Positions 1 through 54,893 of a stretch of 64,000 nucleotides of DNA are shown one piece after another; the stretch's first letter is position 1; each line of letters starts with the position of its first letter. The position numbers were made by a program, and so were the translations under genes. The notes beneath the pieces are model-generated. The model had not been told where the DNA came from and ran no database searches. It was given only the letters and a program-made list of their open reading frames with translations. Source of the stretch: Squalus acanthias (Eukaryota); assembly GCA_030390025.1 (NCBI GenBank), contig CM059431.1, positions 126,978,001-127,042,000 of the forward strand. The letters run 5' to 3'.

Positions 1-539
1 GATCTCCTGACCAACACGTGGGTGCTGCGGTGAAAAACATCCGATCAGCTATTCGGGATTTCTCCGAGTTATTACGAGTGGTGAGCATGAGTCTCGGGAT
101 CCTACGAAGCTAGTTTTAGGATAGTTATTGATAGGGGAGGGTTTAAAGTTTAAGGATATTTGTAATGTGTGCCCTATTTACGTTGTGCTGGTCGTTCCTC
201 GTTTCCCTAAGAGTGATTATAACTGTTTGTAAGATTGTACTGTCATTAATCTGTGCATATGACATGTATTTCATAATTTTAAGTATCATGCAATAAAGAT
301 TTTCCATTTCGTACCGTTCAAACCAAGTCTACATGAGTTTTATCTCCATTACTGCTCTCGCATCTAAGTCCAGTGTCTAGAACCGTAAGGGAGAGTGATT
401 CGAACCACTCACAGGGGTGTCTAGTGTTCCCAGACTGGCTGGAGACCAGGCCTAGACCCGCACTGACATACAGGCTGCACAGAGCCGCGTGAATCTCACA
501 GGCTACGAGACACGCAGGGTCAGGAGAGTATCCCTTACA
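1..539 (+). repeat. 5' LTR (3' part only)
   Basis: Identical by eye to 7671-8209; ends ...CCCTTACA; AATAAA at 292-297. Confidence 0.95.
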
Positions 540-543
540 GAAA

Positions 544-2355
544 ATGGCGACCGCGGCAGGACACTGGCAGCGAGAGGGTAGTGTGTTAGATTTTGGAATG
601 ACTGTACGAAATGTGATGCAGGAAAAGATAGCGGATTACGTATTTGGAAAGGTTAATCTAACGAAAAAGTGGATAAGCGAATTGTTAGCGGATAAGAGCC
701 CACTAGAGGCAGCTGAAAGGTGGACGGATAGTAAGGAGCATAAAAAAGCAGTTGAGAAAGCAGTCTGGCTTATGTGCTACAAAAGGCAGGTTCAGATTTC
801 AAACCAGACCAATACAGCGCTAACCGCTCGAATCAAGCAGTTAGAGGAGGAAATGGAGGAGAAGGTTTCTGGAGGGGAGGCGCTCATTAAGAGTTTAAAT
901 GAGTTACGCCAGGAAAGCCAGGAAGTCTCCAGTTACCTTAAAACAAGGGTAGAGTATCTCGAGTGCCAGATCACTGAAGCAAAATTAAACGAGAGTAGGA
1001 TGAAGGAAAGATGTAACCGTCAAGCTGCCCAGATAAGAACTCAAGAAGAGAGCTTAATGGGGGTTAGGTCGGCGTATAAGTTGGCCCTTGAGGATAAGTT
1101 TCAGGGAGCCGACCATAGCGCCTGCGAAAAAGAGATAGAGAGCCTCAAAAAGGCCGTGAATAATGCGAACGGCATGGTGTGCCTTATTAATCCGTCGGCA
1201 CGCCAGCCGCTAGTAAATGAGAGATTTAGAAATTCCCCACCAAGTAAAGCAGAAGAAGTAGTAGCCAGTGCGCCCTCCGCGCCACCCAGCTATTCAGAAA
1301 CCTGGGTTAGGGAGGAAGCAACGGAAGAAGCAAAAGAGCCCGTTGAAAAGGAGGTAGAAAAGGGATCGTTGTATCCAGTAACGGGGATTAAAAGGGGCCC
1401 AAGCAGAAACGGTGGGGAAGAACCGGGGGATCTCCTCGGACAGCTGGTGTTGCCTCACAGTTCACATCAGCTGAGGGCCATGATAAACCACGTAAGGAAG
1501 CTGACCGAGATAGACGACCCTTCCGTACATTTTAGGGAAGTTGAGCAAGCCGCAGCCATCAACGGCTGCGATGATGGGGAGACAGCAAAAATGCTGCTGT
1601 TCTCTTTAGATAGCTCGGTCCTTCAGTGTCTCTCAGGCGATAGCAAGAGGGGTAATAAAAGTTATGAGGAATTGAAAAATGAGGTCCTAGAAGTAGTGGG
1701 AGCGAACGACGGAGGTCCGTTTGCTAGAGTGGGACAGACAGTGCAGATGGAGGGAGAACCCCCGAAGGTTTTTGCCGACAGGCTGTGGCCAGTATATGAG
1801 CGCAGCTGTCTAGGTGCGCCCGAGCGCGAAGATGTGGAAGGCGCCGCTTTAATTCATTGGCTTAGGTGCATAATAGCCAACAGTTTACCAGCCGTTAGAG
1901 AGCAGGCAAAAGCCTGGTTCGATCCCAATGACCTCAACCTTACGGAAGAGTCGGTCTTGAATCGACTCACGTTAGGTTACCGTAACATAAGGGGTATGGC
2001 AACACGTCCCTTTAAGGGAAGAGTACATGAGGTACGACCCGCAGCCCCGACTCAAAGAGAGTGGCATCAGGAGGGTAATCGCGCCCCACAGGCAAGTAAT
2101 GCCTGTTACGGGTGTGGGAAGACAGGGCACTGGCGCAAGCACTGCAGGAACCCTTGGAAGGATTCCAAGGATAAAAATCCCGCGGTCCGAACCCAGGCGC
2201 CTGTCCCGGCTAAGGAAGCAAAGGCACCCACCTCTCCCGAAGACCTCGAGGCAGTGTTAGGAGTCATGCGCAAGATGGTTTTGAATGCGCGTGGACAGGT
2301 GGCGGTCGCAACCGGCCCCGTAGGTGCCGCAGGACCGTCTAATAGTGCCCCATGA
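544..2355 (+). CDS. gag: Gag polyprotein, 603 aa (alternative start ATG at 598)
   Basis: Intact ORF with a long N-terminal coiled coil, PSAPPSY late motif (1273-1293), capsid-like region (DDPSVHFREVEQAA..., MHR-like QMEGEPPKVFADRL) and a single CCHC knuckle CYGCGKTGHWRKHC (2104-2145). Confidence 0.92.
   Translation: MATAAGHWQREGSVLDFGMTVRNVMQEKIADYVFGKVNLTKKWISELLADKSPLEAAERWTDSKEHKKAVEKAVWLMCYKRQVQISNQTNTALTARIKQLEEEMEEKVSGGEALIKSLNELRQESQEVSSYLKTRVEYLECQITEAKLNESRMKERCNRQAAQIRTQEESLMGVRSAYKLALEDKFQGADHSACEKEIESLKKAVNNANGMVCLINPSARQPLVNERFRNSPPSKAEEVVASAPSAPPSYSETWVREEATEEAKEPVEKEVEKGSLYPVTGIKRGPSRNGGEEPGDLLGQLVLPHSSHQLRAMINHVRKLTEIDDPSVHFREVEQAAAINGCDDGETAKMLLFSLDSSVLQCLSGDSKRGNKSYEELKNEVLEVVGANDGGPFARVGQTVQMEGEPPKVFADRLWPVYERSCLGAPEREDVEGAALIHWLRCIIANSLPAVREQAKAWFDPNDLNLTEESVLNRLTLGYRNIRGMATRPFKGRVHEVRPAAPTQREWHQEGNRAPQASNACYGCGKTGHWRKHCRNPWKDSKDKNPAVRTQAPVPAKEAKAPTSPEDLEAVLGVMRKMVLNARGQVAVATGPVGAAGPSNSAP
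545..562 (+). promoter_or_regulatory. Primer binding site for tRNA-Arg(UCG)
   Basis: TGGCGACCGCGGCAGGAC, 5 nt after the LTR end, is the reverse complement of GTCCTGCCGCGGTCG+CCA, the 3' end of vertebrate tRNA-Arg-TCG as recalled (not database-checked). Confidence 0.85.
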
Positions 2356-2359
2356 CTAG
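2353..2359 (+). promoter_or_regulatory. Putative stop-codon readthrough signal UGA-CUAG
   Basis: The gag stop reads TGA CTA G, and the downstream frame stays open in phase to 3516. Confidence 0.7.
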
Positions 2360-3516
2360 AGCCCACGCAGCCTGCCTACCTGTGTCCTTTTAAAAGACAC
2401 GCACAGGAGGGGGTCTGCGGTGAGGAGGCCAGGTTAAAAGAGCAGGCCTTGCGGGAGGAGAACACCCGCTTAATAGGGAGAATAGATGGGCTGGAAGGGC
2501 AGCTTAGAGAGCAGACCCTACGGGAGGAGAACGCCCGATCAATGGGAAAGTTAGACGTGCTCAGGCTAGAAGAGCAGCTTAGAGAGATAAAAGCAGCCTA
2601 CAGGGTAGCCAAAAGCAGGGAGTATGAGTATTTAAAACAGGATAGAAATCTGCAGCCTCCAGCAGGTGAGATTTCACAGAAACAAGCAGGGGCGGTGGCC
2701 TGTCTTAAGGGAGGGGCCAGACCTGCGAGTGGGGAAGCACAGCCCCAGGTAGGACCACAAGGCACACAGGCAGGCGTAGCAGCTTGCATCAGGGGAAGGG
2801 ACATCCCGGACGATCATGCAGCGTTTTTCTGGAGTTGGGGGTTAGATGACGAGGACCCCAGGGTACCCTGGTCAGATGAGGATAGTGCAGATGAGCATAG
2901 TGATGATGACGGGTGGTTTCAGAGGAACGGTCTGGAAGGATTGGGGCCGCTAGGTAGAGATCCATACGGGGTGGACACACAAGCTGCAGGTCCCGACAGC
3001 AGGAGGAAGGAGCTAGAGGAGGCCGGGCCAGCCGCTATGTGGTTCCCAGAGGTGTGGCCGCCCGCTTTGAACGTCCAGTCCTCAGGGGAGGCAGAGTTCA
3101 CGAGTGAAGGGCCGCCTGCTGGGCCGAGCAGGGCGGGGCCCCGAACTACCAGCCCCGAGGTTAGGGAGGCGGAGTCAGCGGAGGCGGGGCTGGCGCCTGT
3201 GATGGAACCCCAGGTCATCCCGTTGAAGGTCTCGGGACCCGGTCCGTCCGTCACGGAGCCCCCGCCCATAGCAATTCCCCGTAGGTCAAGCAGAGTACCC
3301 CAGCCCAGGAAGATGTGGTCAGGTCCACAGGCTGCCCCAGGGCGTAAGTTTCAGGTTAAGATAACCCGGGTAGAGACAGGCCACATCGAAGCAGTAACAG
3401 GCTGCGGCAGATCAGAGGCAAGGGTCAGCGCAGCAACAGGCTGCGGCAGATCAGAGGGAAGGGTCAGTGCCCTCCCACCGTCGGGAAGAGCTCGCAGCAG
3501 CCTTCTCAGGATTTAA
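2356..3516 (+). CDS. orfX: 386-codon non-enzymatic ORF in the pol position, in frame with gag (predicted 990-aa Gag-X readthrough product)
   Basis: No stop from 2356 to TAA 3514-3516, and no ATG before 2541 (the track's start at 2449 is TTG). Coiled-coil N-part, acidic/Trp patch, Pro-rich low-complexity C-part; no PR/RT/IN motifs. Confidence 0.7.
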   Translation, partial: LEPTQPAYLCPFKRHAQEGVCGEEARLKEQALREENTRLIGRIDGLEGQLREQTLREENARSMGKLDVLRLEEQLREIKAAYRVAKSREYEYLKQDRNLQPPAGEISQKQAGAVACLKGGARPASGEAQPQVGPQGTQAGVAACIRGRDIPDDHAAFFWSWGLDDEDPRVPWSDEDSADEHSDDDGWFQRNGLEGLGPLGRDPYGVDTQAAGPDSRRKELEEAGPAAMWFPEVWPPALNVQSSGEAEFTSEGPPAGPSRAGPRTTSPEVREAESAEAGLAPVMEPQVIPLKVSGPGPSVTEPPPIAIPRRSSRVPQPRKMWSGPQAAPGRKFQVKITRVETGHIEAVTGCGRSEARVSAATGCGRSEGRVSALPPSGRARSSLLRI

Positions 3517-3767
3517 AGGGGCCGCCCTGAGAACGGGCGGCATTGTAAAGTTATTAGTTTAAGGTTTTAAGTTTTAGTTTAAAGTTTTAAGTGGTTTTAA
3601 TAAGGTTAAGTTTGTAGTGTTTGTAACAGAAAACGATAAAATGATGGGAGTTTTAAGGCTAGGTTTAGAGGAAGTCTATTTAGCAAACGTTGAAGTTTAC
3701 GTGAGGCGAGGTCAGGGGACCCGCTCACCCTTCACAAAAGCCAGAGACTTTTTGCGAGGCTGGCTAC

Positions 3768-3787
3768 CTCATTCTATCTGATCACAG
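3768..3787 (+). promoter_or_regulatory. Candidate env splice acceptor
   Basis: Pyrimidine-rich CTCATTCTATCTGATCACAG ends 13 nt before the env ATG at 3801. Confidence 0.5.
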
Positions 3788-3800
3788 GAACCAAGGAAGG

Positions 3801-6152
3801 ATGGAACGACTCATAGTATTGCTCGCGGCAATCGGATGTGGATTGGCCTATCGGGGCCTCACCAAGGATGTCGTGGTGTTTGGATGTTCCGGGGACACGG
3901 CCCCCATCGCGGTGGATGGGACCGGGAGACGGAAGGCAGAAGGGACCAGCACCTATTTCCACAAGGGAAGGTGGCCAGGATGGCTGGGAACGAACTCAAC
4001 GGAGTATTCCAGCACATCGGGGTTCGCCTACAAAGAGACTTCTTTAATGTGCCCCAAAGTACGGATCATCGCACCCAGGATCAGCGTCACCGTCGGCAAA
4101 CGGATTTGTTTGACCTGCAGTGGGAATGTCCCATTGAGCCGATGGTGGTGGCTGCGAAAGCTGAGCAAAACTATGAGGAACTCTTCGGTTGAGTGGGAGC
4201 GACTGGGTAATAATACCCATCGGACAATTACGGGGACAAACGGACAAGTGAAAGTCTGTTGGGACAAATGGTGGGAACCGGATGAGGGGATTTATGTTTG
4301 TATGTGGGGGTCAAAGTACGTTTGCCCCAAAGGCATCTCCATATTCTTTATTAACCAGTGGCAGGATAACGGACAGGGGATGAGGTGGGATGCGAGCACC
4401 AGGGGGTGCGGAGCCCCATACTCTCCGATCCCAGTAAATGCCACTGAGCTCATTACGCGCCCACGCAAAGCCCCGCCCACGATTCCGGTGGTTGTAACTG
4501 AGGAAGAAGGGTGCCCTAAAACTAGTAAGGGACCCGGGAACGGTTTGGTACTGGTCCCCACAGACCAGATACTATTTCAGGGAGTGCATTACGCGGTGGC
4601 CTCGGTGATTTTAAATCTCACTGAGGTACGGTTACCAGAGTGGTGCCCCAAAAAGACGGAACAGTTGTACCAGGTCCTGTTGACCAAGATGTTCAGGCAA
4701 TTTTACGAGTTTGATTTTGCAGAAATTGATAAGACAAGTTTGTACACCGCACCGCAGGAAGTTTTGGACCAAGTAGGGAGGCAAAGAAGGGGTTTGGTGA
4801 ACGATGCGTTCACTGCTTTTAACACAGGGACATCTGTGGTCAACGCTCTAGACAGTGTGGAGCTGCAGACCCAGATTAATGGTTTAAAAACACAGTTAAA
4901 GGATATTCTCACAGATGAGAATAAAGTGGTAGGGTCGGGTCTGCACGAGGACCAAGCCATGACACTACACTTAAAGGAAATCATAGCAGAGCTGGAGAAA
5001 CATGCGCGTACGGTAAATGCCCTGATTAGGGAAGATCGGAATGCATCCGATCAGGCTGCGCAGAACGAGGTGTGCGTGCTTTACGGGGCGTGGTTACTGG
5101 GCGAGGGCCGCAGTAATTTGGAGGATTTAAAACAAGGTTTGGTCCCGTCCTGGATAAGTAACAAACACCTGCGGGCGCTCCACCCTTTTCAGAACGCATT
5201 AAGTCCGTGCCAGCTCAGGCTAGCTTCAGAAGCTTACCCAGTCCCCGTGGACTGCGGACGTTCAAACCATACTATTATGGGAATAGTATTACGCATGCCG
5301 GTTTTGGGCAACACAGCAAAGCCCGCCCCGGTGTATCGGGTAGAGAACATTGGTGTCATTCAGGGGGGAGCCCACATTCGTTATGCAGCGGTTCCACCTT
5401 ACGTCATCCGCTGGGAGCAAACGATGACAGGTACAGATCTCTCTGGTTGTCGTGGCAGGGGAGCACACATAATACTGTGCCCCCAGCACTTGAATGCCTT
5501 TTTAACACCACAGTGCGGGTTCAGAACGGCTGGCGCCAAGTCCATGAATTGCACCATGGAGGCAATGGCACAAGATCATGTGCCTCCGCAGGTAGCATAC
5601 ATCGGGGGTGGAACATACTGTGTTACCACTGCAGCGCAACACCACCAGCATGGAAACCGTAGCCGGTGTCCGGTGAGTGACAGCAGTTTCTGTTTTAAAC
5701 CCAGGGCTGAAGTTCAAGTAGCACAACAGCGAATTATCCCAATCCCTGAACCATCCACTGTTCATCTCACAGTAAAAGAGAATTTTACCGACTTGCAGCG
5801 ATTTGTCGCACATTTTGGGTACCTCATTCCCCCTCTCCCTGAGCATTTAACCAAACTTCTGAAAGCCGTCGCGGTGTCACAAAAGCATTTTTATACATTA
5901 GAACAGAAAACCGTCGAGATAGGTACAGACATTTTGGACATAGTGGTTCCACCGTGGTGGAATCTGTTCACGAATATTGAAGTGCCCTCATGGGTCAGAA
6001 TAGCCTCCCACATTTTAGTCGTCTGTCAAGTGTTTATTGTAGTATACCTATTGTTCATACATTGTAAAAGAGACAAACGCCTCACCAAGCATGAGAACAC
6101 GGGAGAGTGGCGAGAACGTTACGTGCGCGTGCACGATGAGAGCGCAGTGTAA
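3801..6152 (+). CDS. env: Env-like class I fusion glycoprotein, 783 aa, with N-terminal Ig-like domain (F-protein-like layout)
   Basis: Signal peptide MERLIVLLAAIGCGLA; Ig motif C106...W...DEGIYVC167; furin site RQRR (aa 327-330) then fusion-peptide-like GLVNDAFTAFNTGTSVVNAL and a heptad repeat; Cys-rich ectodomain with N-glycan sequons; TM IASHILVVCQVFIVVYLLFIHC; short tail. Confidence 0.88.
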   Translation: MERLIVLLAAIGCGLAYRGLTKDVVVFGCSGDTAPIAVDGTGRRKAEGTSTYFHKGRWPGWLGTNSTEYSSTSGFAYKETSLMCPKVRIIAPRISVTVGKRICLTCSGNVPLSRWWWLRKLSKTMRNSSVEWERLGNNTHRTITGTNGQVKVCWDKWWEPDEGIYVCMWGSKYVCPKGISIFFINQWQDNGQGMRWDASTRGCGAPYSPIPVNATELITRPRKAPPTIPVVVTEEEGCPKTSKGPGNGLVLVPTDQILFQGVHYAVASVILNLTEVRLPEWCPKKTEQLYQVLLTKMFRQFYEFDFAEIDKTSLYTAPQEVLDQVGRQRRGLVNDAFTAFNTGTSVVNALDSVELQTQINGLKTQLKDILTDENKVVGSGLHEDQAMTLHLKEIIAELEKHARTVNALIREDRNASDQAAQNEVCVLYGAWLLGEGRSNLEDLKQGLVPSWISNKHLRALHPFQNALSPCQLRLASEAYPVPVDCGRSNHTIMGIVLRMPVLGNTAKPAPVYRVENIGVIQGGAHIRYAAVPPYVIRWEQTMTGTDLSGCRGRGAHIILCPQHLNAFLTPQCGFRTAGAKSMNCTMEAMAQDHVPPQVAYIGGGTYCVTTAAQHHQHGNRSRCPVSDSSFCFKPRAEVQVAQQRIIPIPEPSTVHLTVKENFTDLQRFVAHFGYLIPPLPEHLTKLLKAVAVSQKHFYTLEQKTVEIGTDILDIVVPPWWNLFTNIEVPSWVRIASHILVVCQVFIVVYLLFIHCKRDKRLTKHENTGEWRERYVRVHDESAV

Positions 6153-6563
6153 TGGGAAAATGGCGTCACTCCCGCTCGCCACGTGCGCCGCGGAAGTTTG
6201 TACTCATTGTAAATACGTTGGAAACTCGATATGTTTAAGAGTCGGGATTTGTTTATTTTGGTGATGGTGTTGATTGTTTGGTTTTTGGGTTTTGTTTTTC
6301 CTTCCCTTGAATAAAAGACAAATATACAGGTGATGCGTGAGGTATCGGCCTGGTTACGCCGGGAAGGAAAACAAGTGGTGTAAGTTTAAGGGCAAATGAT
6401 GCCTACGGTGATATAAAATGTTATTTTCTTGGGAAATAAGGACGACACAGAGACCTAGTGAAGTTAAAATTTTATGGGATTAATTTACTGGATTCGGAGT
6501 GAAATCGAGATAAGATTGCTCACCACTGAGATTTTTGATACGATAAGCGGAGTTATTCGCATC

Positions 6564-6575
6564 AACAGGAGGGAC
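6564..6575 (+). promoter_or_regulatory. Polypurine tract
   Basis: AACAGGAGGGAC immediately precedes the TG start of the 3' LTR. Confidence 0.7.
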
Positions 6576-7141
6576 TGTAGAATTCGCAATTATCGCGATT
6601 TCATTTTTTAATAAGGAGAAAACACAAAGTTTCGTTCAAAACAGCTTTTATTTCAGCGAAATGCTGTCAGGTTTAAATTGGACACAAGCAGCCGGTAAAA
6701 TGGCCGCCGCACCGCGTGACAGAACATTCTAGACTTTTCAGCAGGCAGACAAGATGGCGTTCCAATAAACATTCTTGCAGGATCGATAACGATTCAGCAC
6801 AGTGAAGACAATACACAGGACATTATGGGTTTACAGTATAAACATCGATACTGGAATCGGTCTCCCAGGTACAAAGGAAAGCCATCAAGGGCCCATCCAA
6901 AGGACATTAATATGTAAACTCCCAACGGCTCTACAATGAGAGAGCCGTTAGCAGGTAGTTATACAGGACACTTGGAAGCCCCAAACCCCTCCAGGGGGAA
7001 CACCGACCGATTTAACAATGGGAGAAATATTAACAGGTACTCAAACATTCAGGAGTAGCCCCGAAACCCATTAAGGACAGAGATCACCCATACAGGACTT
7101 TTGGGCGCCAAACCTTAAACAAAAGAATGGACATTGTAGTT

Positions 7142-7173
7142 GGGCGGGAAACGGAAGAACTGTGCACTATAAT
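7142..7173 (+). promoter_or_regulatory. Candidate LTR core promoter (GC box + TATA-like)
   Basis: GGGCGG at 7142-7147 and TATAAT at 7168-7173; CTATAA is kept at the same position in both solo LTRs. Confidence 0.5.
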
Positions 7174-7365
7174 TGCAGGCCCAAACCGTCCATTCGCTCT
7201 CTGGCCTCTTGCTCTTTTGCTCTTGACTCTTGTCGCTTGCTGCTGTTATCATCGTGGCTGCTCCTGTGTTTTATCCGGTCGATTCGTAACCTCGTGGCTG
7301 CTCCTGGGTAAAAGACTGTTGCAAAGACCTATGTTGGTAGCTGGCAGCGGAACCGAAGGCCCGGG

Positions 7366-7395
7366 ATGAGATGAGATGAGATGAGATGAGATGAG
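7366..7395 (+). repeat. (ATGAG)6 microsatellite inside the LTR
   Basis: Seen directly; shorter related runs occur at the same place in both solo LTRs. Confidence 0.9.
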
Positions 7396-7961
7396 AGGAG
7401 AAGAGAAGAAGACCTTATCCATCGCCACGGTCAGTAAATCCCGACCGCGCCTGTAGGTCGATCAGCCAAGTCTTCTCGACAGGAAGTTTTCTTCTTTAAC
7501 AAGACATATTGCATCAATGATAACTGGACTGTGCAAACACATCGTATCAGTGATATTGGCAACGGTGCTCCACGATTTAACTTTGAAGCCCACCAACAGA
7601 GGTCTTCACTACAGCGGACGGTCCAGCCGACTGACCGAGCAGCAGAAGCAGTAAACAAGTGGGACCAGGAGATCTCCTGACCAACACGTGGGTGCTGCGG
7701 TGAAAAACATCCGATCAGCTATTCGGGATTTCTCCGAGTTATTACGAGTGGTGAGCATGAGTCTCGGGATCCTACGAAGCTAGTTTTAGGATAGTTATTG
7801 ATAGGGGAGGGTTTAAAGTTTAAGGATATTTGTAATGTGTGCCCTATTTACGTTGTGCTGGTCGTTCCTCGTTTCCCTAAGAGTGATTATAACTGTTTGT
7901 AAGATTGTACTGTCATTAATCTGTGCATATGACATGTATTTCATAATTTTAAGTATCATGC

Positions 7962-7967
7962 AATAAA
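7962..7967 (+). terminator. LTR polyadenylation signal
   Basis: AATAAA, conserved (as TTTATT on +) in both minus-strand solo LTRs. Confidence 0.7.
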
Positions 7968-8209
7968 GATTTTCCATTTCGTACCGTTCAAACCAAGTCT
8001 ACATGAGTTTTATCTCCATTACTGCTCTCGCATCTAAGTCCAGTGTCTAGAACCGTAAGGGAGAGTGATTCGAACCACTCACAGGGGTGTCTAGTGTTCC
8101 CAGACTGGCTGGAGACCAGGCCTAGACCCGCACTGACATACAGGCTGCACAGAGCCGCGTGAATCTCACAGGCTACGAGACACGCAGGGTCAGGAGAGTA
8201 TCCCTTACA

Positions 8210-10380
8210 GGGCTACTTCCCCTCCTTTTTCATTCTGCCTGTCTTTTCGGAACGTCAAGTACCCTGGAACATTTAGGGGGGAAAATTGAGTCGCGCCCCC
8301 TTTAGGGCATTAATTTCACTGGGGTGCTACTTCTAGTGCCCCGAAAAAAATTAACGCCCCCGCGGCCGAAATTCATCGGTAGCGCCCCAAGAGGGAAGCG
8401 GAGAGCTACTGGAAGCACCCCGCCTCCCTCTTGGGGCGTGCGCTGCGGCACGTCGCGCTGCGCTACTGCAGGCCTTCCTCCCCTTCTTAAAGGGGAGGGG
8501 ACTTGCGCAGCATGAGCCGGGGCCCAGCTGGGCCACCAGGGATCTGAGTGCCGGCAAAAGAGCCCGGCACTCAAGAGAAGTGCCAGGCTCAGGGAGTGCA
8601 GTCAGCACTCTGCGGGGGGGCTGCTCAGGAGGCCGTGGATGGCAACGGGGGCAGGTGCTGGCAGGCGGCCAGCAACAAAAATGGCCGCCCGGCACCTCGC
8701 CTTTAATTAACGCTGTCCCGGCCGCAGGTAGGCCCCCCTGACCCCGTCGGACATAGTGTCCGGCATTAAGTCAGGGGGCACTACCGAAGATCACTGCCAG
8801 GGTGCAAGTGGGGTGCTGCGCATGGCGATGAAGTCATCGCCGGCGACACAGCGCTGTAGGGCGCTAACGGTTACCGTCTTCGCTAACCTCCCGCTGAATT
8901 TTGCAGGAGGCTTTGGCGGTGCCGCGCCCGGGCGCTAGTTGCTTTGCGCCCCGTTAGTGCCCTAGGGCACTAACGGGAGGTGCAAAACAACCAAATTTTT
9001 CCTCCTTAGTTCCCAACCTTGGCCACTTTGCAACCATGTCTCTGTAATGGCTATTAGATCAAACCCATTTATCTCTATTTGTGCCACTATTTCATCTATC
9101 TTGTTACGAATGCTTCGTGTATTCAGATAAAGAGCCTTTAATTTAAATATTTTACCATTATCCCCTGCTTTGACCTTATTCTCTGCTGCACTGCTACCGT
9201 TAAACTCTCTGTCCCTTCCTGTCACACTCTGCTTATTTTTACCCAAATCGCTACACTGCTCTATTGCCTTGACCTTTTGTCTTTAGATTTCTAAATTTCC
9301 CCCCACCTGACCCCTCCACCCGCCTTTTTTAGTTTAAAGCCCTACCTACAGCCCTAGTTATTCGATTCAACAGGACGCTGGTCCCAGCCCGGTTTAAGTG
9401 GAGACCGTCCCGATGGAACAGCTCCCTCTTTTCCCGGTACTGGTGCCAGTGCCCCATGAATTGAAACCCCATTTTCTCACACCACTCTTTGGGCCCTGCA
9501 TTTAACTCTCTGATCTGCTTGACCCTATGCCAATTTACGTGTGGCTCAGGCAGTAATCCAGAGATTATTATCCTTGTTGTTCTGCTTATTAATTTAGACC
9601 CTAGCTCCTCAAACTCCCTCAGCAGAACCTCATTCTTAGTTCTACCTATGTCGTTGGTTCCTACACGGATCACGACAACTGGATCCTCCCCCTCCCACTC
9701 CAAGTTCTTCTCCAGCTGCGAGGAAATATCCTTAACCCTGGCACCGGGCAGGCAACACAGCCTTCGGGACTCTCTTTCGTGGCTGCAGAGAACAGTATCT
9801 ATCCCCCTGACTATACTGCCCCCTACTGCTACCACATTCCTTCCTTCTCCCCGCACTTGGATGGCCCCCTGTACCACAGTGCCATGGTCAGTTTGCCCAT
9901 CCTCCCTACAGTCCTTTTCCTCATCCATACAGGTAGAAAGTACCTCGTACCTGTTGGACAAGGTCCAGGGCTGAGGCTCATCCATCACTACATCCTGGGT
10001 CCCCATACCTGCCTGACTCGCAGTCGCACCCTCCTGTCCCTGATCACTGACGAACTCTAAAGTACTACTTAACCTAAAGGGTGTGACTGCCTCCTGGAAC
10101 AAAGTGTCCAGGTAACTCTCCCCCTCCCTGATGCATTGCAATGTCTACAGCTCGTACTCCAGCTCAACAATTCTGAGCCGAAGTTCCTCGAGTTGCAGAC
10201 ACTTACTGCAGATGTGGTTGCTCGGGATCGCGATGCGTTCCACAGACTCCCACATGCTGCAGTTATGACACAGCCCTGCCCTGCCATCTCAAACCTTGTT
10301 TTATTTATTAATATATTATTTAAAGATTTTATTCAATCGATATTTTAGGTTTATCGTTTGATTATTTTATTTAGTTTAAG
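8210..10380 (-). mobile_element. CR1 LINE 5' part (ORF1 zinc-finger/SGNH esterase, start of APE endonuclease), interrupted by the provirus and a MITE
   Basis: ORF 9329-10141 has esterase motifs (GGSIVRGID, CLPGARVKD, VGTNDIG, DGLHLN). APE motif YLNTRSIRNK...IAITETWL is in 9009-9246 and continues at 8210-8275. Confidence 0.88.
8276..9005. mobile_element. PIF/Harbinger-type MITE, family A copy 1
   Basis: GG(G/A)GGAAAA(A)TT termini, TTA TSD (8273-8275 / 9006-9008), GC/CpG-rich; inverted copy at 20972-21710. Confidence 0.8.
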
Positions 10381-46391: not shown

Positions 46392-48043
46392 TGTAAGGGG
46401 TTTTGTCTTGCTTGTATCACAGACGGTGCTGGTGCGAGGTCAGGCCTTCGTTGCCTAATACTATTGCTTGCTCTGGTCTCCGGCCAGCCTTGTTGCAATA
46501 AGCACCTGTGAGTGGTTCGACCCACTCGCCCTTACGGTTCTAACACTGGACTTAGGTGCGAGAGCAGTAATGCAGAGAAAAACTCAAATAAACCTGGTTG
46601 AATAGTACGAAATGGAAATCTTTATTGCATAGCGTCCAAAATCATGAAGTACATGTCATAGGCGCAAATTAACGAGAGTACAAGTATACATACATTCATA
46701 AAGCTTGGTCTATGGAAATGAAGAACGCACGGCACATCGTAAAAAGGGGTACACATTATACTTTATCCTTAATAAAACCACCCTCCCTTATCAATACCTA
46801 CACTACATCTAGATTTGTAGGATCGGGAAACATGCTCACCACTCGTGATACTTCGGAGAATTTTAAAGTGAGGCACTCGGCTCGTTCGCTGCAGCGCCTG
46901 ACTGTCACGTGTTTGGAGGGGTCTCTGTACCCCACTTGTTTATCTTCGCTGCTGCGACAAGCAGGCCGGGCTCCCCGTTGTCATGAAGAACTCGACAGAC
47001 CTCGGGCCCGGTTGTAGAACTCAAAGAAAAGTCTTCCTGTACTGACACCAGTTGTCGGTAGAATTCAATGAAGAGTCGATGGACCCAAACCGATTCGTGC
47101 AGTAACCCGTAGAATTCAAGAAATGAGTTCTATGTTTTCGGGCACGGTCGGGGTTTACTGACCGCGGCGGCACGTGAATTCTTCTTCTTTTCTTCTCGTC
47201 TCGTCTTGTCTTGTTGGGCCTTCGGGTCCAGACACCGTTTACCGACTCTCGGGATGGTGCACCCGGTCACTTGCCCTTGTCGATGCGGCTCGTTCCGTTT
47301 GAGCTCCACCCAACATTCGAATAACCGTCCAGTGCGGCTACAAGTCAAGAGTCAACAGTGTCCAGCCCTAAGGAAGAGTTTCAGCAAGGGTTCGCCGAGA
47401 GAAAAATAAGAGAGCGATGGACATTTGTTCTCTATAGTTATAGTGCTGTGTCCCCTTATCTCCCGCTCAAATCTTAATGTTTGTCCTTTGTGAAATATTG
47501 GCACACAAAACTCCCAGCATGGGGGCGATTCTTTCCTTAACGGGTTTCGGTAGCACCTGAAACTGGCCAACTACCCGTTAATGTTTTCCCCATAGCCGAA
47601 CCAGCTAGGAGTCTCCCTGACTGGTTTTGGGGCCTCCTCGAATACTGACTTAATCACCCGTGAATGGCTCTCTCATTGTAGAGCCGTGGGGGTATATGTG
47701 TATTGCTGTGTCTGGATGGGCCTTCGATTGCCCAGTACAATGGTCCTTACTTGTGCATGGAAAACGATTCCAGCATCTTTTGCTATTGTTTCGAATGCAA
47801 ACAGGTTGCATCCTGTCTTTATCAATGTTTACCGAGTATGATCCAATTTTATATCGAATGTTTATTCGACGCCATCTTGTCTGCCCACTGTATTTCTGGA
47901 AGCTTCTGCCACGATGCGCGGCGGCCCATTTTACAGGCTTCTGTGTCCTTTATAATCATGACAGCATTTCGTTTAAATAAACTGATCAAACGAATCTGCT
48001 TCTCTCTTGTTATTTTGAATCGCGATAATTGCGAAACTTTACA
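46392..48043 (-). mobile_element. Solo LTR (1652 bp), diverged member of the provirus LTR family
   Basis: TGTA...TACA termini, perfect CGTT TSD (46388-46391 / 48044-48047), collinear blocks with 6576-8209; sits inside a Harbinger remnant (~46325-48570). Confidence 0.92.
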
Positions 48044-52289: not shown

Positions 52290-54893
52290 TCAGTATGTGT
52301 CCAGCCCTAGGAGGAAAGAAGTATTTCTACATCTAGTTCTGGGGAATGACATGGGGCAAGTGGAGCATGTTTCAGTGAGGGAGTATGTGGGAAACAGTGA
52401 TCACAATATCATTAAGTTTAGAGTAGTTATGAAAAAGGACAAGGAAAAATCAAATGTGCAAATACTCAACTGAAGAAGGGCTAATTTCAGTGAGTTGAAA
52501 AGGGATCGGGCCCAGATGGATTGGAATAAAATATTGGGAGGTAAAACAGTAAATGAGCAATGGGAGGCCTTCAAAGAGAAGATAGTTTGGGTACAGAATT
52601 GTAAGGGGTTTGGGTGGCTCTGTGCTTAGCCTGGGTGCTAGTGCGGGGTTAAGCCTTGTTGCCTGTTCTGGTCTCCAGCCAGCCTGGTAGCACTAGACAC
52701 CTGTGAGTGGTTCGACCCACTCGCCCTTACGGTTCTGACACTGGACTTAGGTGCGAGAGCAGTAATGCAGAGAAAACTCAGGTAGACCCAGTTGAATAGT
52801 ACGAAATGGAAAATCTTTATTGCATATTGTTCAAGATTACGAAATACATGTCATAAGCACAGATTAATGACAGTACAAGCTTACATACATTTATGCAACT
52901 AGGTTTAGGGAAACGAGGAGCGCACGACACATCGTAAAAGGGGGCACACATTATAATTATCCTTAAAACAAAACCCTCCCCTATTAATACCTGTCCTAAT
53001 CTAGATCTGTAGGATCGAGAACCATGCTCACCACTTGTGATAACTCGGAGAATTCTAAAACGATGCTCGGATGTTTTCGCCACAGCACCTGACTATTCAC
53101 GTGTTGATCAGGGGTCTCTGTACCCCACTTGTTTACTCGCTCTGCTGCTGCAAGCAGGCTGGGCTCCCCGTTGTCATGAAGAACTCGACAGTGCTCGGGC
53201 CCGGCTGTAGAACTCAAAGAAAAGTCTTTCTGGATCGACACCAGTTCGATAAAATTCGAAGAAAAGTCTTCCTGCGTCAGTTCGTGCAGTAACCTGTAGA
53301 GTTCAAAAATGGTCTATATATTTTCGGGCGCGGTCGGGGTTTACTGACCGTGGCGGCACGTGGATTCTTCTTCTTCTCTTCTCATCTCATCTCATCTCCT
53401 CGGGCCTTCGGGTCCAGACACCGTTTATCGACCTTCGGGATGGTGCACCCGATTTCGCAGCGTGCCATGAGGTCGACCCCAAAAGGGATCAGCGGAACAA
53501 ACGAGAGTAACGGTCGTCCGGGAGAATAGCCAAGAGACGATTCCAAGCGAATGAAAAGGATAAGAGAGCGATGGGCGCTTGGACACTACAGTTATAGTAC
53601 TGTAATTCATTATCTCCCGCCCAATCTTAATGTTCATCTTTTGTCATGTTTTGGCGCTCAAATTTCTTGTATGGTGTGGTTCTTGTCGTTAATGGGTTTC
53701 GGTGATACTTGTAACTGTCTAAGTACCCGTTAATATTTCTCCCATTGTGGAACCGGCTAGGAGTCTCCCTGGAGGGGTTTTTGGGGCCTGCGAATTCTTG
53801 TTGTGAGTACCCGCGAACGGCTCTCTCATCGTAGAGCCGCGGGGGATTTGCGTATCAATGTCTTTGGATGGGCCCTTGATTGCCCAGTACAATAGCCCCC
53901 GTTTGTGCATGGAAAAACTCGATTCCAGCACTTATATTTCTTGCTTAGGTGTTAGAAATGCAAAACAATCGCGTCTTGTCTTATATCAATATGCTGAGCA
54001 CTGTCCGATCTTGCTGAAATGTTTATTGAAATGCCATCTTGTCTGCCTACTGAAAAATCTGGAACCTTCTGCCACGAGGCGCGGCGGCCATTTTACAGGC
54101 TTCTTGTGTCCGTTTTTGAACGTGACAGCATTTTGCTGAAATAAAGCTGTTTTTACGAAACTGTATGTCTCTATCTCGTTATTTCGAAATCGCAATAATT
54201 TGCGAATTCTACAGACTAGACACATTCCCATGAGAGGGAAAGGAAGGGCATCCAAAGCTAAAGCCCCCAGGGTGACTACAGATATCGAGATTAAAATGAA
54301 ACAGAAAAAGGAGGCTTTTGATTAATGTCTGGTTCATAATTCAGTAGAGAAACAAGCTGAATATTGAAGAAGGAAATAAGAGGAGCAAAAAGAGTGTATG
54401 AGAATAGAATAGCGGATAACATAAAAGGGAACCCAAAAGTATTTTATAAATAAATAAATAGTAAAAGGGTAGTAAAAGGAAGGGTGGAATTGATTAGGGA
54501 CCAAAGAGGAAATCATCTTGTAGAGGTTGAGGGCATGAGTGAGGTGCTAAATGAGTACTTTGCATCTGTCTTCACTAAAGAAGAGGATGTTGTCAATGTC
54601 ACAGTATAGGAGGAGGTTGTAGAGTAATTGGTTCAGATAAAAATAGATAAAGAGGAGGTATTTAAAGGTTGGCAGAGCTCAAAAAAAAAAGTCACCAAGT
54701 ACGGTGTGATCCTAGGTTGCTGAGGGAAGTAAGTGTGAAAATTGCAGAGGTTCTGGCCACAATCTTCCAATCCTCTTTAGATATGGGAGTAGTGCCAGAG
54801 GACTGGAGGATTTCAAATGTTACACCCCTGTTTAAAAAAGGGAAGAGGGTTAAAACCGCCAGTCAGCCTAACATCGGTGGTGGGGAAACTTTT
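52290..54893 (+). mobile_element. Degenerate CR1 ORF2 fragment split by the solo LTR; continues after the Harbinger at ~58405-58705
   Basis: SDHN, EYFASVF and VPEDWR..NVTPLFKKG remnants; the sequence rejoins across both insertions. Confidence 0.75.
52600..54213 (-). mobile_element. Solo LTR (1614 bp), diverged member of the provirus LTR family
   Basis: Ends TGCGAATTCTACA (reverse complement of the proviral LTR start) and TGTAAGGG; TSD GAAT/GACT with one mismatch. Confidence 0.92.

Follow-up and report, generated by a model that had tools for sequence, protein, structure and literature searches.

A putatively Gag-derived open reading frame follows gag in a pol-less, lokiretrovirus-like element of Squalus acanthias

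Lokiretroviruses encode a Gag with an N-terminal coiled coil ('smc', at the start of their smc-gag-pol ORFs) and an MLV-like capsid, together with an Env that is related to the F proteins of Mononegavirales and carries a basic cleavage site, a fusion peptide, a coiled coil and a transmembrane segment (PMC7947760). The group is delimited by a reverse transcriptase (RT) phylogeny sister to retroviruses, a tether plus RNase H and a CGIN1-like integrase, and within the accessible part of that study the row for Chondrichthyes gives 0/3 for Orectolobiformes. A pol-less relative has been described in zebrafish: BHIKHARI (Bik-1) is lokiretrovirus-related and recently active, has a single ORF for a coiled-coil Gag of ~600 aa and must borrow its enzymes (10.1101/2024.03.25.586437). 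Two other systems are pertinent here. The gag-pol junction of MuLV and the UGA plus 3′ stem-loop of alphaviruses both place an in-frame stop codon, followed by a 3′ structure, between a structural ORF and a second one (PMC8310308), and Ty1 encodes p22, a protein identical to Gag's C-terminal half and made from an internal transcript (PMC4599808).

Here we analysed a 64,000-nt stretch of Squalus acanthias DNA (GCA_030390025.1, CM059431.1, 126,978,001–127,042,000, forward strand), referred to as the window. Positions 1–8209 hold an LTR element with the order LTR-gag-orfX-env-LTR and three long plus-strand ORFs; neither the ORF list nor a Pfam search contained pol between its LTRs. Like lokiretroviruses, it has a Gag with an N-terminal coiled coil and an MLV-like capsid, and TGA-CTA after gag; its Env, with a basic cleavage site, may likewise be F-type. 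Unlike them, it is without pol, its Gag contains a CCHC knuckle, a further Gag-like coil would follow at the C-terminus, and its Env includes an Ig-like stretch. The resemblance concerns Gag layout, Env type and junction, the group being defined by an RT that is absent from this element, which under our preferred explanation is a non-autonomous, lokiretrovirus-like LTR element. It shares with Bik-1 recent activity, the loss of pol, a coiled-coil Gag of similar size and the need for borrowed enzymes, but it keeps env and an additional in-frame ORF, and with three long ORFs it falls outside the definition of BHIKHARI (one Gag ORF between LTRs). The extension behind the MuLV stop is an enzyme, whereas here it would be a tail that is Gag-derived and mostly of low complexity. 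Ty1 p22, likewise an element-encoded Gag fragment, offers a model for interference; orfX differs from it in being a diverged piece of the N-terminal half in a separate ORF.

Pol-less lokiretrovirus-like elements are thus already known from BHIKHARI, and the new part is the combination of env with a Gag-derived ORF in the pol slot. We found no description of a pol-less element that keeps env with such an ORF in the pol readthrough slot in a search that took in few subscription papers and not Repbase; the architecture is not described in the accessible parts of PMC12440569, PMC8310308, PMC9040795, PMC5408684, PMC10699275, 10.1101/2023.10.26.564294 or 10.1101/2021.11.23.469661. A matching family may have been deposited in Repbase or in bioRxiv supplements. 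The weight of the finding lies in this pol-slot architecture more than in the coiled-coil likeness described below. If the interpretation is correct, it places such an element in a host class for which the accessible part of PMC7947760 listed no lokiretroviruses.

Layout of the element

The features of the element are as follows (window coordinates; + marks the plus strand).
1–539, +, 3′ part of the 5′ LTR, truncated by the window start; identified by identity to 7671–8209
544–2355, +, gag, 603 aa, ending in TGA; identified by ORF, Pfam, structure model and relatives
2353–2359, +, TGA-CTA-G at the gag/orfX junction, a readthrough-type context; identified from the sequence and the gag ends of relatives
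2356–3516, +, orfX, 386 codons from stop to stop in the gag frame, first ATG at codon 63
2362–2425, +, predicted hairpin, a candidate readthrough stimulator weakly supported by folding energy
2439–2583, +, tandem duplication in the orfX coiled coil, one unit of 69 nt and another carrying a 6-nt insertion
2491–2619, +, orfX aa 46–88, match to the distal Gag coiled coil by profile, hhalign and alignments
2682–2803, +, short Cys-containing motif in two copies 84 nt apart (25/38 nt identical, gapless)
3391–3468, +, 39-nt tandem duplication close to the end of orfX (92%)
3517–3800, non-coding spacer from orfX to env
3801–6152, +, env, 783 aa; identified by ORF and Atlas features
6148–8209, +, 3′ LTR, ~2.06 kb; start placed by the terminal inverted repeat; other copies show joints of the LTR end to 540

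The identity between the two LTRs extends over all 539 nt available for comparison. The sequence flanking the element consists of CR1-like LINE pieces; four of the five flanking ORFs tested match RT, endonuclease or GDSL families.

Gag consists of a helical N-terminus, a long coiled coil (aa 68–186 and 192–211), a linker, a capsid (~307–486) and a CCHC knuckle (520–535). Its structure model (pLDDT 71) predicts one helix at aa 68–186, a second at 192–211 and the capsid at 307–486; the best fold match of this model in the PDB is the MLV capsid (E 3.5e-3), and the best among viral models are epsilonretroviral Gags (E 9e-8). Named relatives of this Gag come from skate, catshark, whale shark, horn shark and Xenopus. 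The lokiretrovirus trait of an N-terminal coiled coil ahead of an MLV/Ty3-like capsid is present, a trait that is not exclusive to lokiretroviruses.

Env comprises a signal peptide, an Ig-like stretch (aa ~87–167), a furin-type site (aa 327–330), a putative F-type class I fusion region and a transmembrane helix. Its ESM Atlas features (0.93–0.94 to Fusion_gly, Baculo_F and Gypsy clusters) suggest a fusion protein of the F-type class I kind; the Pfam family PF00523 gave no match to Env at E up to 1, and the single-sequence model (pLDDT 33) was unusable. The Ig-like stretch (window 4050–4320) contains a D-x-G-x-Y-x-C motif, matches Ig_3 below the cut-off (E 0.009) and has weak PDB matches to JAM and to an antibody light chain; it may serve in receptor binding or be a host domain that was captured, placed in front of an F-type fusion protein. 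Three predicted proteins from other genomes (P0020, P0022 and P0031) join, as judged by eye, stretches that look like the Gag and the Env of this family, which indicates that related gag-plus-env elements exist elsewhere, whale shark included.

Likeness of orfX to the Gag coiled coil

The first-pass annotation had proposed that the N-terminus of orfX (2430–2800) is a divergent second copy of the Gag coiled coil, with three segment pairs in the same order. All six peptides are present in the order given, and a Smith–Waterman alignment (BLOSUM62) of orfX with the element's own Gag joins segments 1 and 2 with a score of 68; segment 3 is not part of it. This score was reached by 2–9 of 1000 shuffles for full-length sequences and by 0–3 of 1000 for N-terminal parts, so that the outcome (0–9/1000 overall) depended on window and shuffle type. 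For the narrowest window the score was 60, reached by 0–11 of 1000 shuffles. HHalign of orfX against Gag placed orfX 40–89 on Gag 133–185 with a probability of 30% and an E-value of 5e-4. BLASTP with composition adjustment returned nothing between orfX and Gag (best E 4.2), and no similarity between gag and orfX was seen at the DNA level (score 29; shuffles mean 26, maximum 46).

Unrelated coiled coils, against which the likeness was to be judged, were drawn from 120 prokaryotic loci with an SMC-type motif; these yielded 35 usable proteins and 174 overlapping coiled-coil windows, a narrow set given that the 35 proteins are related and the windows overlap. Against the element's own Gag, 5–7 of the 174 SMC-arm windows reached the score of 68, and thus the pairwise match alone is marginal. 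Profiles of close Gags gave a sharper result. Here, orfX aa 46–88 scored 19.5 bits without and 19.3 bits with the own Gag, and 23.4 bits when P0031 and P0032 were included. With the HMMER bias correction none of the 174 decoys reached any of these three scores, placing this stretch above the unrelated natural coiled coils; without the correction, 6, 5 and 1 of 174 did. Adding three distant Gags to the profile lowered the score to 15.3 bits, which was reached by 2 of 174 decoys (29 of 174 uncorrected). Shuffle controls on the Gag profiles gave 0/500 in 18 of 20 sets; the two exceptions, both block shuffles, gave 1/500 and 4/500. When 16 single Gags were compared with orfX, the number of decoys reaching its score was 0 for P0032 and P0031, whose short coils make decoy scores run lower, 4–7 for four Gags and 14–141 for the remaining ten. 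The best match of orfX was a whale-shark Gag fragment rather than its own Gag.

The match to the Gag coil is real, although modest, and it covers only the distal third of the coil (orfX aa 46–88), its signal being carried by the middle of the three segments. In this region the orfX coil contains a 69-nt unit (2439–2508) followed by a second unit with 6 extra bases (2508–2583). Each unit on its own aligns to one and the same stretch of P0032/P0031 immediately ahead of the segment 2 motif, and the original pairing of segment 1 is thus probably off-register. Segment 3 (QAGAVACLK in orfX, ANGMVCLIN in Gag) is itself duplicated in orfX, the copies lying 84 nt apart; no local alignment recovered its match to Gag, and its spacing alone fits, with 34 residues from Tyr to Cys in orfX and 35 in Gag. 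For the complex of Gag 60–225 with orfX 15–125, each chain being folded without an alignment, the prediction reached a score of 0.16, the mark being 0.34.

From the profile scores above all 174 decoys we consider orfX probably Gag-derived, in line with the descent from a related gag that had been suggested at the outset. The suggestion had been an old duplication or capture; an origin by capture out of a different Gag lineage, or by an old split, is a better fit than recent copying of the own gag. In a tree of 75 columns and 15 rows, the own Gag groups with the skate Gag and P0010 at 97/95, and orfX forms a long unresolved branch (length 1.63); grouping orfX with the own Gag is disfavoured, not rejected (p-AU 0.092). 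This topology may stem from capture out of a different Gag lineage, from an old split or from fast drift.

A search of 1772 candidates, 212–676 aa in length, gave no homologue of orfX at E up to 10, and the coiled-coil profile found no second orfX: its 5 hits in 7995 candidates were all Gags or Gag fragments. Atlas matches of orfX were at chance level (0.81), its sole Pfam match was Rab11-FIP3 under the cut-off (E 0.004), and the viral and metagenome contigs searched contained no related loci. By eye, the tail of orfX may resemble integrase C-terminal tails and its first codons the start of Pol. The idea, arrived at post hoc and by eye, that orfX aa 274–357 (window 3175–3426) is the decayed start of a capsid domain was unsupported: the profile score was −1.7 and was matched by 359–373 of 1000 shuffles, hhalign gave 0.1%, one of seven pairwise tests stood at 7/1000, the glocal test gave 14–21/400, and a control Gag segment did better (1/300 vs 24/300).

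The gag/orfX junction

orfX directly follows the TGA of gag in the same frame, in the context TGA-CTA-G. P0004 and P0008 end no more than one residue away from where gag does, which indicates that this TGA is the natural gag stop. The first ATG of orfX is codon 63, in the middle of the coil with a T at −3. The first-pass annotation had treated orfX as a protein of its own; lying in frame behind a readthrough-type stop, with no ATG before codon 63, it is most likely produced as an extension at the C-terminus of Gag. The context TGA-CTA-G has been named as readthrough-prone (10.1101/2021.04.18.440353). It occupies window 2353–2359 here, and our own reading of the supplement of PMC7947760 (300 of 318 pages) found TGA-CTA, which is no published lokiretrovirus criterion, after gag in four of four separately annotated lokiretrovirus gags; read by hand, the frame of all four continues to a Pol-start motif that they share. 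Readthrough goes unmentioned in the accessible main text of that paper. That TGA-CTA (here at 2353–2358) is common to this element and to lokiretroviruses suggests readthrough as the lokiretroviral mechanism for Gag-Pol.

A hairpin predicted at −29.1 kcal/mol begins 6 nt past the gag stop. Compared with shuffles it is only marginally more stable, with a z-score of −1.98 (9/200) or −1.23 (22/200) depending on the window. By frame and stop context, orfX fills the pol slot and would be produced as Gag-X, and its expression by readthrough appears probable. None of the 24 contig pieces listed (11,881 more exist) crosses the gag stop.

Other copies and explanations for the open frame

Of 23 listed sequencing runs, 20, drawn from ten studies and no fewer than seven coded organisms, contained 56–75% of the sampled 31-mers; none of these listed runs is recorded as RNA. 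Four runs were aligned to the element (X4, X14, X16 and X21), of which X21, the sole raw RNA run, contributed 0 reads and provides no test. The other three, from three organisms, had depth in all 30 bins and covered orfX: in X4 the orfX bins ranged over 124,000–246,000 (gag 121,000–274,000), in X14 over 95–352 (gag 138–1348) and in X16 over 26–51 (gag 30–68), depths that are not copy numbers. One X16 contig joins the end of orfX to the start of env (3459–4009); none of the 24 pieces listed spans the whole element. Two contigs, one of X14 and one of X4, show net in-frame losses of 69 nt and 75 nt, respectively, in the duplicated coil, and among 12 of 50 indel rows listed none fell in orfX.

The frame of orfX is open for 386 codons; the other five frames contain 5–22 stops, and 300 shuffles a mean of 14 and a minimum of 6. 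Its internal duplications have spacings of 69, 75, 84 and 39 nt, all multiples of three. Among the best-supported 40 of 440 substitution rows, a non-random sample of which 37 lie in ORFs, synonymous and replacement changes numbered 3 and 14 in orfX, 9 and 8 in gag, and 2 and 1 in env (neutral expectation 28–29% synonymous; Fisher p 0.07). Just 2 of the 17 listed orfX changes lie in the coiled-coil part, and both are replacements. Small and non-random as it is, this sample suggests that the orfX frame is kept open with little constraint on its residues, a pattern that does not look like that of a conserved binding surface.

The explanation we prefer, with slightly less than even confidence, is that a captured piece of gag replaced pol, that readthrough yields a minor Gag-X product and that the frame is kept chiefly because it can be translated. 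Either recombination or deletion in the course of reverse transcription would have exchanged pol for part of the gag of a diverged relative (its distal coiled coil and linker), with the gag stop and its readthrough context retained. A few per cent of ribosomes would pass the TGA and make Gag-X (~990 aa) in place of Gag-Pol. After the capture orfX would have drifted and duplicated internally while staying in frame, and the X tail may be carried into particles as a largely unconstrained passenger. The architecture, the open frame, the junction, the profile match, the in-frame duplications and the occurrence in runs of other organisms are observations; readthrough, the recombinational origin and selection on the frame are inferred. 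Disordered functional proteins are also rich in replacement changes, which counts against this explanation. As a hypothesis, the most plausible reason to keep the frame would be that reading through into a long ORF protects the unspliced RNA, which runs >5 kb past the gag stop, from nonsense-mediated decay (NMD). NMD is inhibited at 1–5% readthrough, an effect that depends on how long the downstream ORF is (PMC5360307); against such shielding, >3 kb would be left untranslated even after readthrough of orfX. Were the frame kept for RNA stability, the element would be a natural test of readthrough into a long ORF as a selected protection from NMD. A more specific proposal seems to us unlikely: a successful shark ERV family would have exchanged pol for a captured second Gag module with unchanged readthrough control, Gag-X would take the place of Gag-Pol as a small, constant fraction of every particle, and either X would dock helper enzymes through its Gag-like coil or the open frame would be a dedicated anti-NMD device; if true, either would be a new route of persistence for a non-autonomous, envelope-bearing element.

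Three other explanations bear on the same observations. orfX could be a neutral relic, left by recombination with an unsampled gag lineage, with duplications that arose within a still working Gag and a frame still open because the family is young. Identical LTRs and the shared 31-mers do indicate a young family, Gag linkers tolerate internal duplication (P0039, by eye), the substitution pattern is near-neutral and the donor lineage is absent from the sequences searched. However, orfX is covered in three organisms, records <90% alike included, the 12 indel rows listed hold no orfX frameshift, and a replicating non-autonomous family would presumably shed 1.2 kb of no use; we regard this account as quite unlikely. 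X might instead be a working accessory domain, much as the first-pass annotation had envisaged, with its coil pairing with Gag or helper Gag-Pol and recruiting enzymes or biasing assembly against the helper. Survival of the coiled coil and of the Gag-like motif at aa 74–85 despite the long branch, the presence of orfX along the family in three organisms, the targeting of membranes by the Bik-1 Gag coiled coil (10.1101/2024.03.25.586437) and the precedent of Ty1 p22, a Gag fragment acting on Gag (PMC4599808), all speak for it, and binding of X to Gag would constitute a new parasite-of-a-retrovirus strategy. We nevertheless hold it to be improbable: none of our analyses supported such a role, orfX retains only the distal third of the coil and lacks the His/Cys motif found between the helices of close Gags, natural copies differ by a whole unit of 23–25 residues, and both listed changes in the coil are replacements. 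Moreover, going by the topology of retroviral Gag, X as a C-terminal extension would probably lie opposite the N-terminal coil of Gag across the capsid lattice.

It is very unlikely, finally, that the likeness reflects generic coiled-coil composition and that orfX came from a host gene, a pol remnant or de novo. The BLASTP E-value of 4.2, the hhalign probability of only 30%, the 5–7 decoys equalling orfX against the own Gag, the 1–6 reaching its profile score without bias correction and the narrow origin of the decoys, in 35 related proteins and overlapping windows, are all compatible with it. Against it stand the 0/174 obtained with corrected close-Gag profiles, including one without P0031/P0032 and the own Gag, the alignment of both repeat units and the following motif to one place in P0032, and the fact that the matching gene is a neighbour within the same element.

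Several further observations concern the LTRs and the leader. The gag ATG lies 4 nt past the LTR end and overlaps a TGG-initiated stretch resembling a primer-binding site (window 544–562), possibly of the tRNA-Arg type; P0004 and P0009 share the start position of gag, and the whole leader would thus fall inside the LTR. At ~2.06 kb the 3′ LTR is unusually long and its start overlaps the env stop codon; a polypurine tract upstream of it is not obvious by eye. Depth in run X14, which we guess to be RNA, peaks over 6428–8215. Elsewhere in the window, on the minus strand, 52668–54214 and 46473–48035 are diverged pieces of the same LTR (70–83% identity) and likely represent old solo LTRs belonging to a related subfamily.
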